From NCBI GenBank assembly GCA_027031765.1, contig JALVPN010000087.1:1-14797 (forward strand): a stretch of 14,797 bases of DNA, written 5' to 3'. The translations under genes were made by a program, and so were the position numbers. This document shows, piece by piece, positions 1-14,797 of this stretch. The number at the start of each line of letters is the position of its first letter. Position 1 is the stretch's first letter. Source of the stretch: Promethearchaeota archaeon. Lineage in GTDB: Archaea > Asgardarchaeota > Thorarchaeia > Thorarchaeales > Thorarchaeaceae. A model generated the notes under the pieces. The model worked only from the letters and a program-made list of their open reading frames with translations. It was not told the DNA's origin and made no database searches.

Positions 1-3000
1 GGGACCGGCGACAGGAGCACATCTGCGGTGATGCTCTTGTTGTAGTGTACGAACTTGGACGCGTTTATTGTGAAGGTATACAGCTGGGCGTCCAGACCTG
101 TCGTGTTGATTGTCAGCCTGTACACACCGTCGCCCAGTTCGGTTATTGTGTGCGGTGTACCATAGAGGTCGGTCCAGTCGGTCATCACGGTCGCGCCCTC
201 AATCCCGGCGCCCACCTCGTACGCGGTGAACGTGATGTTCGCAACGATAAGGTCACCCACGTACACGGTGGTGGACTCAAGGCCTACGAAGTGCAAGACC
301 GTTGCCACCGGCGTGAGCTTGATGCGGAATGCAAGACCGCTGACGTTCTCGTAGTACGGCGGGCCGGTCACGGTGAGGTTCGCCAAGAAGTGGTAGCGGC
401 CCAGCTCTGTGAGGCTGCTGCTGTTCACCATCACGGTGTAGGTACCGTCGCCGTTGTCGCGGTAGGAGTATGTGATGCTGCTGTTCAGACAGCTGATACT
501 CACAGTTGCACCTGTGACTGGACGGCCGGTGAGGTAGTCCTGTAACTGGAGCGTGGCCGTCATATTGAACCCATAGGATGCAGGGGGTGTGGCCAGTACT
601 GTGGCCTGTGTGGAGCGGGTTGTCACTGTGACCTGTGTGGAGGTCGTTGCATTCGTGTAGTACGGTGCCCGGTCGCCCCAGACGAACTTGATGGAAATCG
701 CGTGGTCAGCCTCCGGCCCGGCCACGAGGAGGGTGGAGTTCACTGCCAGCCCGTAGCCACCGTCCGTGACGTAGAGCTCGTAGTCCGAGGGGGCAATCAC
801 CCCGCCGTTGCCGTGAGTGAGGATCAGCACCGACTTGTCAAGTGCCACCAGTGTGCCGCTCAGCTGGTCCGTCACGGTGACCTCGAAGGTGACGGTCTCA
901 AGGAATGGTGTATTGAGTGGTGAGCGCGTCACTGTGAATGTGACGGGCCGCCTGGTGACCTCGATGTCCACATGTCGCGTACGTGCGACGTAGAACGGTG
1001 CTCCTGTCCAGTTGGCCGTCACGGTGATGGTGTAGGGGCCGAAGTTGCCCAGTGCGACGGTGGATATCCGGACGCGGTACCGTCCGTTGCCCAGTGCGTC
1101 GACCCAGTAGTTGACACCAATTTCGAGCTGTTCAGATGCAGCACTGCAGTTCGCCCGTACTATGGCACCATCAATGCCCGCACCGGTACTGTCGTCAGTG
1201 AAGCGCACGGTGATGTTCGCCTGTGTCAGATATGGGGCCGGCTCCGGCAACTCGCTCTCCAGTTGCGTCCGCCGCTGCGTCACGGTCAGGTAGAAGAAGT
1301 CGGTAGCGTTCGCACAGTAGCGGTCCCCACCGTACACCATAGTGGCATTCACGATGAACGTGCCAGTACTCGGGAACACCGACGTGTCAAGTGTTACCGT
1401 GTATGTCCCGTCCCCGTTGTCCGCGACCCAGTAGTGGCCTGCGAGGGAGGCGTCCAGGGTCAGCGTCCCGCCGTCCATGCCCTGTGTACTGTAGTCGTCC
1501 AGGTCGCGGTACGTGAACACCACTGTGAGGTTGTCGGCATACTGCACTGGGGCAAAGGAGCTGTGGGTCAGGTCAGTGTGCCTCACCCTGACGGTTATTG
1601 GTATGCCCACCAAGGTGTGGTTCTGATAGAATGGCCTGCCGGCCCACGTCACGTTGATGTGGAACACATGGTCTCCGGGTGCCCACGATGATGTGTTCAG
1701 TTCCAGCTGGAAGACGCCGTTCCCATCGTAGTACAGCGAGTAGACGACCGCCTCATCAATCACAATCGAGAGGGCACTGCCGTTCTCTATCCTCGTACTG
1801 CTGAGTGTGTCCACGTACGACAGCGTGAGGTTCACGAGCTCGTCGTATGGTGTGACCGGTAGCGGTTGCCAGTCGACAGTGGTCTGTCTCTGGATTGTCT
1901 GTATCGTGACCACGATCGTCTGGTTCTCGTAGTACGGCAGCTCGCCCTTGGTCCAGTTGAACCAGACCCTGAGCTCGCACGTCACAAGGCCACTGAGGAG
2001 GTCAGTGTCAAAGTTGACACGGTACTCGCCAGGACGGCCCGTGGGGTCAATCTCCTGCACCACCATGTCGGCCTGTGTGAGGGTCTCGCCGGCCGTCAGC
2101 ACGATGACTGTCAGGTGCACATTGCCTGCGTAGGGCCCTGTGGCATTCACAATGCCGGTCTCGTTGCCCACGTCGTAGTACACAACGGTGAAGGTGGCGT
2201 TCTCACCGTAGGGCGTCATGGCTGGGCTCTCGCTCAGGAAAATGTTGGTCGGCGTCCCGGTGATGGTCACCGTACACAACAGGGTCTTGTTGGAGTACTT
2301 GACCGTGGGGCCTGTCCAGTTGGCATAGACAGTGAGGTTCTGCTTGCCAATGGCACCCCACTGGTGTGCTGGCAGTGTGATCACGTACTGGCCTGCGTAG
2401 GAGCCGTTCGTGACAGTGTACTGGAGGTCAGCAAGCGTGGTGCTGGTCACACGAATCTGGACATAGTACCCAGCCGAAGAACCGTTCTCAATTCCCGTGT
2501 CGGTGTCCACGTCGTGATAGACCACGTATATGTGCACCTCAGCAGTGTACGGCGTGGGCTCGACCGGGTTGTCAAGGTAGAAGGATGTGAGGTGTGTCCT
2601 CAGCTCCACAGTCATGCTGAGCGTGTGGTTCTGGGCGCCATAGCGCTGCACCTGGACTGTGATGTTGTACTCGCCAAGGGTGTCCGTGTCCTCAGAGTAG
2701 AGGAGGACCTCGTACACTCCCGGTGTTGCGGTCTCGGTGACCGTGTAGTTGAGGACTCCGCTGCCATGTCCGACCACTGCCCCCCAGTCGCACGTTATCG
2801 AGTCTGCAGACCCGGTCAGTGGCTGGTCGTGGTCGGTGTCACGGTAGGTCACTGTGAAGGACGCAGTGTAGCCCACTGGGATCGAGACCCTGCTCGTGGA
2901 CGGGACTGCCGAGGTGTGGAGCTCCCTTACCTGCACCGACAGGACGATGCTCCGTGCCTGGAAGTACTCCTTGGTGGCATTGATCTCCACGTTGTAAGTG

Positions 3001-3520
3001 CCGAGGACAACGTTGCCCGTCTGTAGTGCAAGCTCGTAGTGGCCCGGACTGCCGGCCACCTCGTTCACCGTGAAACTGTCCAGAGTCCAGTTGCAGGAAA
3101 CCGTCGCACCAGTGATGGGTGCACCGGTCTCGTCCTCATAGTACACGTCCAGTACTGCGTCGTAGCCCTTGGGCACATCAACGCCCGGCGCGTCCTGTGA
3201 GAACAGGTTCGTCTTATAGTATACGTTGATGTAGAACGTCCTGTGGAGCGTGTCGTAGTTGTCCTTGGTCCAGGTCAGCTGGACTGCATACCGCCCGTTC
3301 GCAGGCAGTGCGTCGGTGTCGAGCGTCACACTGTACTCACCAGTGCCCATGTCGCTGACCGGCCCTGACCCAGCAGCCCACGAGTACGTCATGGTGCCGC
3401 CCGGGAGGAAGTCGCCATTGTCCGAGTCGTTGACCCTCAGCTGGAGCAGCACGAGCTCACCATAGTAGGTGTCGGTCTCCCATGACTGTTCAGACCCGAG
3501 AGGGTACTTGACGGTCATGT
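1..3520 (-). repeat. At least 11 tandem ~100-110 aa Ig-like beta-sandwich repeats
   Basis: Recurring pattern T-x-hydrophobic...P-Y/F-G...(V/T)-x-Y-x-D...I-x-G-A/N...D/G-x-G-x-Y-x-hydrophobic-x-hydrophobic-D/N-T...N/T-W...Y, for example TPYGENATFTVVYYD, TPYDELVNLTLSYVD, DNGDGTYTVTLDTS. The Ig fold is inferred from the beta-strand pattern. Confidence 0.8.
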
Positions 3521-14600: not shown

Positions 14601-14797
14601 TATCGCAGAGGCCCGTGAAGCGGTACAGGAGGCAGAGGCGGGACTGGAGGGACTGTGGGACATCCGTGCACTGCAGCGGTACAAGAAGAGACTGCAAGAC
14701 ACGGAGCAGCGGGCAGCGGCCTTTCTGGCCCGGGCACGGGAACTGGCTGCAGGCACGGGCCTATTACTGGAGGAAGGGTGGGTGACCAGTGCAGAGG
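11689..14797 (+). CDS. Single-pass receptor-like membrane protein (>1036 aa, C-terminus beyond window): signal peptide, FG-GAP-like propeller, TSP3-like Ca-binding stalk, TM helix, cytoplasmic helical domain
   Basis: Manual translation in frame +1 from GTG 11689 (MYRSPVVFILVVTLTLAGVAVHSHGQALA), the first start codon after the in-frame TGA at 11632, with no stop to the window end. TM LILWAVLIVPNVVVVSVVAV (14251-14310) followed by KWHRRR. Confidence 0.93.
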   Translation, partial: MYRSPVVFILVVTLTLAGVAVHSHGQALATPRGHTVGVDGTTDTPSDGNTSLAAGTVLWSYQTHGPVRSSPALDDVDSDGDLDVVVGSDDGRIYTIDGTTGTVLWSYLLLQDVSSSPALGDVDGDGDVDAVVGCDSGRVYAIDASEGSLLWSHQTGDRVASSPALGDMDGDGSLEVVVGSNDDRVYVLNGTTGTVLWSYQTGAEVSSSPALGDMDGDGDLDIVVGSSDHHVYAIDGVAGTVIWSFQAGGNISSSPALADINGDGHLDVVVGSLDGNMYAIDGTTGTMLWSYESLGPVESSPALGDVDRDGDLDVVFGTHGQYVRVLDGATGTAVWSSGTGYPVSSSPALADVDGDGDLDVVVGSWDNNTYALDGRTASPIWAHETGAPVCSSPVVGDIDGNGVLDVVFGSGDHNVYALSTSADAGRVFWQGLAGDASWHRTRSVQSIDPDHDMLSSYSEGLYGTDIGDPDTDADGTPDGWEVANGLNATDGHDGAMDPDGDGLSDLGEYRNRCDPHSPDTDGDGLPDGWEVTNGLDPAGTDDAGGDPDGDGLTNLAEYQNGCDPHSSDTDSDGMPDRWELENGLDPADASDEGTDPDSDGLSCLAEYQYGCDPHDPDTDDDGMPDGWETAHGLDPTDMGDAGADPDGDGLMNSGEYQYGCDPNNNDTDSDALPDGWEVLSGLDATANDTDGDGLLDGWEVANGLDAADNDTDADGLSDGWEVANGLDAADNDTDGDSMPDGWEVINGLGATDASDQTDDPDGDGLTNLAEYQNGCDPHDNDTDGDGMPDGWEVANGLEPVDGGDAALDTDHDGLSDLAEYRYGCDPNNPDTDGDGLSDGWEVSVAMAPLVPTDGLILWAVLIVPNVVVVSVVAVKWHRRRDQRLRPWRYDPDIESRGGKARSMVDWVSQQERKAGLLEAKEDFAGAAAVLREVVAALGRGRRRLLERDADWYEATWTRLTRVLRQYEVKKHIAEAREAVQEAEAGLEGLWDIRALQRYKKRLQDTEQRAAAFLARARELAAGTGLLLEEGWVTSAE
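11851..12945 (+). repeat. Eight 46-aa FG-GAP/VCBS-like repeats (8-bladed propeller with DxDGDGxLD Ca-binding loops)
   Basis: The Pro codon of SSP recurs at 11899, 12037, 12175, 12313, 12451, 12589, 12727 and 12865 (exact 138-nt period). Consensus G-T-V-L-W-S-Y-x-T-G-x-x-V-S-S-S-P-A-L-G-D-V-D-G-D-G-D-L-D-V-V-V-G-S-x-D-x-x-V-Y-A-I-D-G. Confidence 0.92.
13030..14215 (+). repeat. Asp-rich thrombospondin type-3-like (DTDGDG) Ca-binding repeats: 49-aa units interrupted by three 22-aa short units
   Basis: Trp codon of the D-G/R-W-E motif at 13126, 13273, 13420, 13567, 13714 (147-nt steps), 13780, 13846, 13912 (66-nt steps), then 14059 and 14206 (147-nt steps). Confidence 0.9.

Follow-up and report, generated by a model that had tools for sequence, protein, structure and literature searches.

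The window analysed here is a complete 14.8-kb contig of a Thorarchaeota (Asgard) genome from a hydrothermal vent metagenome. The archaeal, probably Asgard, host proposed in a preliminary description of this DNA was borne out by the label Candidatus Thorarchaeota on almost all of ~150 close homologues of gene B. Three genes (A, B, and C), each predicted to encode a surface or membrane protein, fill 11.6 kb between them, as that description had stated, and all of the parts it listed were found (Table 1); the contig ends cut both A and C. Its placement of B and C on opposite strands, with three unrelated-looking genes between them, also held. None of these intervening hexapeptide, HD, and LysE genes adjoins B in the ±20 kb context of 20 relatives, and all three are unrelated neighbours of the operon described below. 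N-glycosylation sequons exceed the numbers in shuffled sequence in A (53 vs 20 ± 3.9), B (13 vs 3.8 ± 1.7), and C (10 vs 4.2 ± 2.0), which supports their identification as surface glycoproteins.

Table 1. Features of the 14.8-kb window, with strand and basis of assignment.
Feature	Position	Strand	Basis
Gene A, N-terminal 2,083 residues of a giant type-I membrane glycoprotein	3..6251	-	start ATG at 6251; runs off contig
A_mid, conserved all-beta core of head	3645..4904	-	signature of family; no Pfam family
Six-bladed NHL propeller in loop of A head domain	4932..5765	-	Pfam NHL, AF2 model
A_Nterm, head core together with A_mid	5820-6254	-	family signature
B-A intergenic spacer, 162 nt, two TATA-like boxes	6252..6413	-	read directly
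Gene B, membrane-anchored PIG-S-fold metzincin-like protein	6414..8678	-	754 aa from ATG at 8678
B C-terminal TM helix and basic tail, residues 737-767, after Thr-rich linker	6420..6512	-	translation, model
B catalytic (metzincin) domain, residues 321-530	7131..7760	-	structural match to archaemetzincin
B Met-turn SPMGY, residues 505-509, M507	7200-7202 (M507)	-	translation
B zinc motif HETMHALGFHH, residues 481-491 (H481, E482, H485, G488, H491)	7248..7280	-	translation, alignment
Three unrelated genes between B and C	9316..11344	+	profile matches
Gamma-carbonic-anhydrase/PaaY-like hexapeptide protein	9316-9846	+	profile match
HD-domain protein	9975-10643	+	profile match
LysE-type transporter	10682-11344	+	profile match
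Gene C	11689..14796	+	open at contig end
C propeller, 8-bladed PQQ/ACSF4-type with FG-GAP-type Ca loops	~11836-12978	+	Pfam, repeat count
C stalk, 15 TSP3-like repeats	~13096-14202	+	motif count
C TM helix, residues 855-876	14251-14316	+	translation

The product of gene B opens with a hydrophobic signal or anchor at its N-terminus. A luminal-type domain and an FN3/CBM56-like sandwich follow, then a linker rich in Thr, and the chain closes with a TM helix and the residues RRRRV. The TM helix and basic tail recur in nearly all B orthologues, and Thr-rich linkers in some. Together with the zinc motif and Met-turn, this helix upholds the earlier reading of B as a membrane-anchored HExxHxxGxxH protein. 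The zinc site is intact and conserved: HExxHxxGxxH is kept in 31/31 orthologues, the Met of the Met-turn is mostly kept (L or I in 3/31), and E482, H485, G488, and M507 each show 90% conservation or more among 65 diverse B-family members. The same genome also encodes a B paralogue without the motif. Searches with the B sequence against Pfam, NCBIfam, and PDB sequences gave no match, and the family does not rise above the thresholds of the curated M10, M12, M43, M54, and M66 families, its members reaching sub-threshold scores at the motif (Peptidase_M10 in 42/65 and Peptidase_M54, by sub-threshold matches alone, in 9/65). B does present the features that define metzincin clan MA(M), namely the extended zinc motif, the Met-turn, and the catalytic-domain fold, and we infer that it is an active protease. 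It was found in 62/87 genomes and 17/17 genera of the order, as a single-copy gene ~50% identical throughout.

In its predicted structure (AF2 model, pLDDT 82.7, pTM 0.77), B resembles PIG-S/Gpi17 (PF10510; PDB 7WLD, 7W72, 8IMX), a non-catalytic subunit of the eukaryotic GPI transamidase. This was the best whole-length fold match (Foldseek E 5e-13, prob 1.00 for 7wld_S), and VIA aligned PIGS chains to model residues 1–615 at Z 12.5–14.4 over 407–435 residues (8imx_S at Z 14.4 and 7w72_S at Z 13.8, with 423–430 residues aligned); globally the domain arrangement differs (TM 0.3–0.4, rmsd 13–19 Å). An ESM-Atlas PIG-S cluster matched at TM 0.38/0.53. Both proteins place a large extracytoplasmic domain between N-terminal and C-terminal hydrophobic helices, but the zinc site kept in B is absent in PIGS, and B carries the additional FN3/CBM56-like domain and Thr-rich linker. 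Residues 222–398 of PIGS have been described as an archaemetzincin-like fold, in a protein whose role in GPI anchoring was termed less clear (Xu et al. 2022, PMC9098846). The catalytic domain of B matched archaemetzincin AmzA (MEROPS M54; 2X7M, 3LMC) with Z 10.3, rmsd 3.3, and 163/180 residues aligned for 2x7m, and with Z 10.6, rmsd 3.0, and 163/191 aligned for 3lmc. AmzA shares the fold, HExxHxxGxxH, and Met-turn, but is a small protein of ~180 aa, whereas B is a 754-aa membrane-anchored ectoprotein. At the sequence level, PF10510 had no match in the same genome at E <= 1 and in 0/65 B-family members, and a profile of B orthologues did not recover PIGS from PDB sequences. PF04113 (PIG-T) had no match in this genome either, in a search whose control was likewise without any match, and PF01650 (C13) gave one weak match (18.6 bits) on another contig, C37. 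Fold matches to B as good as or better than PIG-S were obtained for clusters from Bathyarchaeota, Chloroflexota, and Actinomycetota and for plant DUF7906, so the fold matches do not single out an Asgard-to-PIG-S descent.

Gene A begins with a signal peptide. Its missing C-terminus (785 aa) was located on C20, another contig of this genome, and its paralogue A' likewise lies outside the window. Orthologues of A range from 2,568 to 2,916 aa and combine a signal peptide with a single TM helix and a tail on the cytoplasmic side. A and A' are paralogous type-I membrane proteins of about 2,600–2,900 residues and of no known family, rich in N-glycosylation sequons, whose single TM helix near the C-terminus is followed by a conserved cytoplasmic tail of ~190 residues. 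The tail alignment has 53–56 invariant columns out of 250, and all proteins in which the tail was detected come from Thorarchaeota-type MAGs (four labels, including Thorarchaeota, Sifarchaeia, and a bare “Promethearchaeota”). The head was modelled with a pLDDT of 86.4, and A_mid, the conserved part of its core, was detected in 59/87 genomes, usually as exactly two copies in tandem. The preliminary description had seen in A an NHL propeller on an Ig-like stalk; the propeller is firmly supported, whereas the Ig-like part consists of sub-threshold matches alone (Invasin_D3, A2M_BRD, and Big_1) in a long all-beta region.

The NHL assignment (PF01436) has an E-value of 3e-32 and a score of 109.5 bits (cutoff 20). 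The six-bladed fold is common to A, TRIM71/Lin41, Thin, teneurin, and PknD, and the propeller of A is set apart by being extracellular and lodged in a loop of another domain. Its AF2 model aligned with the TRIM71/Lin41 NHL domain at Z 42 (rmsd 1.6–1.7, 35–36% identity), and animal TRIM-NHL proteins (TRIM71/Lin41 and fly Thin) are 35–39% identical to it; teneurin matches were weaker (Z 23–29, vs 40–42 for TRIM-NHL), and bacteria and other archaea commonly have NHL propellers just as close (TM 0.83–0.86). The propeller is present at about one third of the loci, roughly two thirds of A orthologues lack it, and the distance from the end of B to A_mid falls into two classes, ~0.8 kb and 1.5–2.0 kb. 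The NHL propeller is an optional insert.

The linkage of the protease to the NHL giant, noted earlier from this contig, extends well beyond it. B and A lie here on the same strand with a 162-nt gap, and in 16/20 relatives (±20 kb context) B is followed by a same-strand A orthologue (50–60% identity) and then by A' (35–40%). Across the order, A_mid lies 0.7–6.5 kb downstream of B on the same strand at 34 of the 40 placeable B loci, from at least 12 genera. In the genomes inspected, the open frames of the two giants share 6–49 nt, and on an independent public contig B precedes a 2,909-aa NHL protein and, after it, one of at least 2,578 aa. The gene order B → A → A' is therefore a conserved feature of the order. 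B and A_mid each occur in 17/17 genera and in 21/24 high-quality genomes, a co-occurrence that adds little, since adjacent genes can be gained or lost jointly for trivial reasons. Departures were also seen: A/A' were found but B was not in G029, G067, and G060, B lies on a separate contig from A/A' in G052, and G082 has kept B but lost A/A', of which a 37-aa remnant is left. Hence the giants do not strictly require B. Likewise, distant B-family members have no adjoining A-type giants, which limits the pairing to this orthologue group, and given A's own TATA-like boxes in the spacer, co-transcription of B and A stays putative. A check of RNA runs turned up none with this sequence.

Taken together, we interpret B and A as the leading pair of genes in a surface operon of Thorarchaeales, B → A → A', in which a membrane metzincin most likely cleaves the two giants, a reading that we regard as probable though far from secure. 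With their beta-rich heads, long sequon-rich stalks, single TM helix, and conserved cytoplasmic tail, A and A' would most likely form large structures protruding from the S-layer-less Asgard membrane, perhaps acting as a pair, with the NHL propeller as a putative exchangeable ligand-binding insert in the head of A. B would be a membrane-anchored ecto-metalloprotease of the metzincin clan with the overall fold of eukaryotic PIG-S, located at the same membrane face as its presumed substrates A and A', and most likely cutting them for maturation, shedding, or turnover. Comparable logic is known elsewhere. In Pseudomonas, LapG and LapA form a cassette of protease and giant adhesin in which LapG is a periplasmic cysteine protease under LapD and c-di-GMP control, and ADAM and MT-MMP enzymes are membrane sheddases. 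What the B system has in common with such cassettes and sheddases is a dedicated protease gene next to that of a giant surface protein, and a membrane-tethered protease exposed on the side where its presumed substrate lies; LapG, ADAM, and MMP have no homology to the B system beyond the metzincin motif, and the propeptides and cysteine switches of ADAM and MMP enzymes were not seen in B.

Cryo-ET of Candidatus Lokiarchaeum ossiferum revealed a single membrane without an ordered S-layer, bearing complex large protruding surface proteins that were suggested to have aided the cell–cell contacts needed for eukaryogenesis (PMC9834061). The predicted size and topology of A and A' are those expected for such densities, although L. 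ossiferum belongs to another Asgard class than Thorarchaeota. The operon provides concrete Thorarchaeota surface candidates, namely a pair of giant single-pass glycoproteins that share a conserved cytoplasmic tail, and a dedicated membrane protease, all of which can be sought in proteomes and tomograms. As a fold relative of PIG-S that is catalytically intact, judging by its conserved zinc site, B may also be a tractable model for what the PIG-S fold does. A bolder extension holds that the B family retains, in active prokaryotic form, the fold from which PIG-S arose, and that the operon displays its native job, the cleavage of giant single-pass proteins at a constant height above the membrane, a logic later inherited by the GPI transamidase with PIG-S reduced to a scaffold, while A and A' form a paired transmembrane receptor linking the cell surface to a cytoplasmic partner; we consider this unlikely.

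The cleavage of A and A' by B has several competitors. B could be a general surface protease, active in peptide scavenging or envelope housekeeping, that sits beside A and A' through shared regulation of envelope genes and does not use them as substrates. The genomes with B or the giants only, the unrelated contexts of distant B-family members, and the promoter-like boxes of A all fit this possible but rather doubtful reading, yet the conservation of order and strand with short spacers is tighter than shared regulation needs, and the single-copy conservation of B across the order also speaks against it. Quite improbable, in turn, is a PIG-S-like, non-proteolytic role for B, as a membrane scaffold or chaperone on which another enzyme or the giants are held during assembly: PIGS is the best whole-length structural match and the genome does contain an inactivated B paralogue, but scaffolding alone would not need the catalytic Glu and three His kept in every orthologue or the mostly kept Met-turn, and the PF10510, PIG-T, and C13 searches reported above lend it no support. 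An O-glycopeptidase-type enzyme that trims glycosylated stalks is very unlikely. Foldseek lists the glycopeptidases Amuc_1438, OgpA, and M60 Zmp at E 3e-7 to 1e-3, and Thr-rich linkers would suit such an activity, but the corresponding TM-scores are very low (0.10–0.24, rmsd ~20 Å), these glycopeptidases are absent among the 50 matches listed in each of two VIA-align runs, and A and A' are rich in N-sequons, not Ser/Thr tracts.

Gene C had been likened to an integrin-alpha/thrombospondin receptor, and its FG-GAP-like propeller, TSP3-like stalk, TM helix, and cytoplasmic domain (at least 160 residues, open-ended) are indeed present. A seven-bladed integrin-alpha FG-GAP propeller is ruled out: there are eight blades with an exact 46-residue period and a DxDxDG loop in each, and the best model is Beta-prop_ACSF4 (8e-98, 328 bits), ahead of FG-GAP_3 (2e-35, 121 bits), which clears its threshold too. 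The TSP3-type repeats after the propeller, with 15 DxDxDG motifs between residues 470 and 838, match the bacterial model TSP3_bac (PF18884; 9e-22, 77 bits vs a cutoff of 25). The analogies to animal folds hold as architecture but not beyond, given an optional NHL insert with equally good matches in bacteria and other archaea, the weaker teneurin match, the eight blades, and the bacterial TSP3 model, and the tempting “integrin/thrombospondin/MMP” story is removed as unsupported. The earlier suggestion that A, B, and C make up one adhesion, sensing, and shedding module could draw on the fact that a single 14.8-kb contig encodes three proteins predicted to be at the surface or in the membrane, on the position of the inactivated B paralogue after two FG-GAP propeller genes, and on one B orthologue that comes after a 2,058-aa protein whose FG-GAP matches are faint, but it is scarcely credible and contradicted by synteny, as C lies on the opposite strand behind three unrelated genes and a C-type propeller, TSP3 stalk, or cytoplasmic domain occurs within 20 kb of B in 0/20 relatives. 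C is an unrelated neighbour outside the operon and a member of a multi-copy family, its type of propeller occurring on 14 contigs and its TSP3 stalk on 20 contigs of the same genome.

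The analysed contig (C87, 14,797 b) coincides with the window and belongs to a 2.95-Mb genome (G000) of 229 contigs estimated to be 95% complete; G+C content ranges from 58 to 64% along its full length. An Asgard origin had been guessed from the sequence alone, and this guess proved right because almost all of the ~150 close homologues of B, the gene for a membrane-anchored metzincin-like protein, carry a Candidatus Thorarchaeota label (45-55% identity). Among the runs listed, the only public one containing the sequence was a hydrothermal vent metagenome (DNA), which is probably the source sample; none of those listed was an RNA run. 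No tRNA genes or Rfam families were found in scans of the window, whose layout is tabulated below.

Features of the contig, in order of position
Feature	Position	Strand	Remark
A, giant NHL surface protein	3..6251	minus	open at contig end
NHL propeller of A	4932-5765	minus	extracellular
TATA-like element	~6338-6352	minus	~90 nt upstream of A start
B, metzincin-like protein	6414..8678	minus	
Gene-free stretch, ~640 nt	8679-9315		between divergent B and gamma-CA genes
Pyrimidine-rich tract	~9095-9190		
Similar copy of TATA-like element	~9273-9288	plus	~30 nt upstream of gamma-CA gene
Gamma-CA/PaaY-like hexapeptide protein, HD protein, LysE transporter		plus	three genes between B and C
C, propeller, TSP3 and TM protein	11689..14796	plus	open at contig end

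We looked for B across the order, in 87 genomes, and in 20 of them searched the regions within 20 kb on either side of it with segments of genes A, B, and C and of the small genes between B and C. B was present in 62 genomes, mostly as a single copy, including all 17 genera and 21 of the 24 high-quality genomes. Within 16 of the 20 fetched loci, an orthologue of A (50-60% identity) came after B on the same strand, and a paralogue of A, here A' (35-40% identity), came next. The conserved all-beta core of the A head (A_mid) was detected in 59/87 genomes and 17/17 genera, typically in exactly two tandem copies, and when two coordinate tables were combined it lay 0.7-6.5 kb downstream of B on the same strand at 34 of the 40 placeable B loci, upholding the proposed link between A and B. 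The same order was found on an independent public contig (B, a 2,909-aa NHL protein, and a protein no shorter than 2,578 aa), and in the genomes inspected there is an overlap of 6-49 nt between the A and A' open frames. In the contig's own genome, the operon is split by the assembly, with the last 785 residues of A on contig C20, the end of A' on C83, and the head of A' unassembled. Neither this B–A–A' operon nor an A/A' family with a cytoplasmic tail appears in the literature searched.

The gene C, by contrast, falls outside this unit. Its product carries every part first ascribed to it, namely an FG-GAP-like propeller of eight 46-residue blades with a DxDxDG loop in each (Beta-prop_ACSF4 8e-98, FG-GAP_3 2e-35), 15 TSP3-type motifs past the propeller (TSP3_bac 9e-22), and then a TM helix leading to a cytoplasmic domain. 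Yet none of the 20 genomes had the C propeller, the C cytoplasmic domain, or any of the three small genes adjoining B, and C belongs to an expanded family, with the propeller on 14 contigs and the TSP3 stalk on 20 contigs of its own genome. Thus, when continued adjacency in related genomes was checked, only B stayed with A, and the three-gene module for adhesion, sensing, and shedding put forward in the preliminary description was not borne out: its Asgard assignment and A–B link stand, while C is no member of the unit and the parallels with animal systems are only architectural. Three paralogues of the C cytoplasmic domain (31-36% identity) were also observed on contigs C28, C162, and C115, and several surface receptors therefore share this domain.

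Full-length A and A' orthologues span 2,568-2,916 residues, with a signal peptide, one TM helix ~200 residues before the end, and a cytoplasmic tail. This tail displays the invariant motifs SVPK..R just past the membrane, MRPSERAGF..EV..QE, and a terminal EQA..L.KAE.DALL, with 53/250 invariant columns across 13 A tails and 56/250 across 10 A' tails. It matched nothing significant in Pfam, PDB sequences, or ESM-Atlas features, and occurred only in fragments from Thorarchaeota-type MAGs. When the TM helix and tail of A and of A' (alignments A4 and A5) were submitted together to complex prediction, the score was 0.00, a result that bears neither way. The NHL propeller on a long Ig-like stalk reported initially is indeed present in A: following the signal peptide is a true NHL propeller (Pfam NHL 3e-32), and past it come more than 1,600 all-beta residues for which Ig-like matches were sub-threshold only. 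Whole-head fold searches were dominated by NHL propeller matches. For A_mid, the Atlas features yielded no more than weak leads (Ig-like, CARDB, and cleaved-adhesin; scores ≤0.78). Self-BLAST identified no internal repeats in A at E 1e-3, and the stalk domains have diverged.

The propeller is itself an insert between the N-terminal piece of the head (A_Nterm) and A_mid, found in about one third of orthologues, with NHL-bearing and NHL-less forms both occurring within one genus. An AF2 model of the A head (pLDDT 86.4) superposed on the Lin41/TRIM71 NHL domain with Z 42 and rmsd 1.6, but the propeller is equally close to those of bacteria and of other archaea (TM 0.83-0.86) and to animal TRIM-NHL, and that of teneurin is further away (Z 23-29). 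Here too, the analogy with animal proteins is one of architecture only. At the sequence level, the A propeller shares 35-39% identity with its counterparts in animal TRIM71/Lin41 and fly Thin, a high value for an archaeal–animal pair, although by fold the prokaryotic NHL propellers are just as good a match.

B contains the HExxHxxGxxH site and Met-turn originally described (HETMHALGFHH and SPMGY), along with a Thr-rich linker and the C-terminal TM helix that would anchor it. No match to B was found in Pfam or NCBIfam, and nothing relevant among PDB sequences, whether it was queried as a single sequence or as a profile. Its AF2 model was good (pLDDT 82.7, pTM 0.77), and the PIGS chain of human GPI transamidase ranked first in two independent searches, Foldseek (E 5e-13 to 2e-9) and VIA-align (Z 12.5-14.4, with 407-435 residues aligned, spanning model residues 1-615). 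Archaemetzincin superposes on residues 321-530 (2x7m Z 10.3, 3lmc Z 10.6), and an FN3/CBM56-like sandwich spans residues 601-702 (Z ~11). Residues 222-398 of PIGS are reported to adopt an AmzA-like fold without a metzincin site (Xu et al. 2022, PMC9098846), whereas this site is kept in 31/31 B orthologues, and E482, H485, G488, and M507 are at least 90% conserved across 65 diverse family members. The family is small: a search of 1.84 billion representatives gave 134 clusters at E 1e-3 or better, and every named member is Asgard (Thor, Heimdall, and Odin-labelled).

No sequence-level link of the B family to PF10510 (PIG-S) was found, and fold relatives of B occur in Bathyarchaeota (TM 0.60/0.71), Chloroflexota (0.55/0.65), Actinomycetota, and plants (DUF7906, 0.50/0.49), compared to 0.38/0.53 for the PIG-S cluster. 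B thus founds a new metzincin-clan family whose modelled overall fold is PIG-S-like, with any specific line of descent to PIG-S hypothetical. The GPI transamidase complex is stated in general terms to be Asgard-derived in a 2026 paper (PMC12872458), and no mention of PIGS was found in those of its supplements that were searched. A PIG-T search for GPI-T partners gave no match, with the positive control silent too. No paper combining Thorarchaeota and metzincin turned up in the literature searched, and none of the papers listed combined Asgard and PIG-S. DUF7906 (PF25483, ~800 aa, Streptophyta) is a second eukaryotic family with the overall fold of B besides PIG-S (490 residues aligned in ESM-Atlas), and shows weak sequence matches to 5 of 65 B-family members. 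Of the GPI-T partners sought, Peptidase_C13 (legumain/PIG-K family) gave one weak match, at a contig end (G000:C37:164-331; 18.6 bits, 24.8 with neighbours).

In Lokiarchaeum ossiferum, complex surface proteins protrude from a single membrane that has no ordered S-layer (PMC9834061). By their size, their topology, and their sequon content, A and A' are what would be expected of such structures in Thorarchaeota, N-glycosylation sequons being in excess over shuffled sequences in A (53 vs 20 ± 3.9), B (13 vs 3.8 ± 1.7), and C (10 vs 4.2 ± 2.0), and the optional NHL head of A suggests exchangeable ligand binding. B would be anchored in the same membrane and on the same side as A and A', its catalytic residues are preserved, and at most loci its gene immediately precedes theirs. 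On the simplest reading, B may thus be a dedicated processing protease for their maturation, shedding, or turnover. That B is instead a general ecto-protease is a live alternative in view of promoter-like boxes within the 162-nt B–A spacer and of sporadic uncoupling across genomes. Among the exceptions, B sits on a separate contig in G052, the locus is rearranged in G018 and G076, A/A' are present and B was not found in G029, G067, and G060, and G082 kept B and lost A/A', with a 37-residue remnant of the A N-terminus just downstream of B (L049:18450-18560).

Beyond the operon, a paralogue of B on contig C226 (L088:7122-9362) is 31% identical and has lost the HExxH motif; it directly follows two FG-GAP propeller genes (L088:1-2049, at least 682 aa; L088:1961-6100, 1,379 aa). 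No A-type giants adjoined distant B relatives in the contexts of three relatives; at L090:10001-16044, genes for FtsX (946 aa) and an ABC ATPase come directly after a distant family member (P0137, 29% identity). Within the window, the stretch upstream of B is unusually long for a gene-free region and had no Rfam match. The TATA-like element, TTTAATrTGGGGyGT, may represent a promoter consensus of this lineage.
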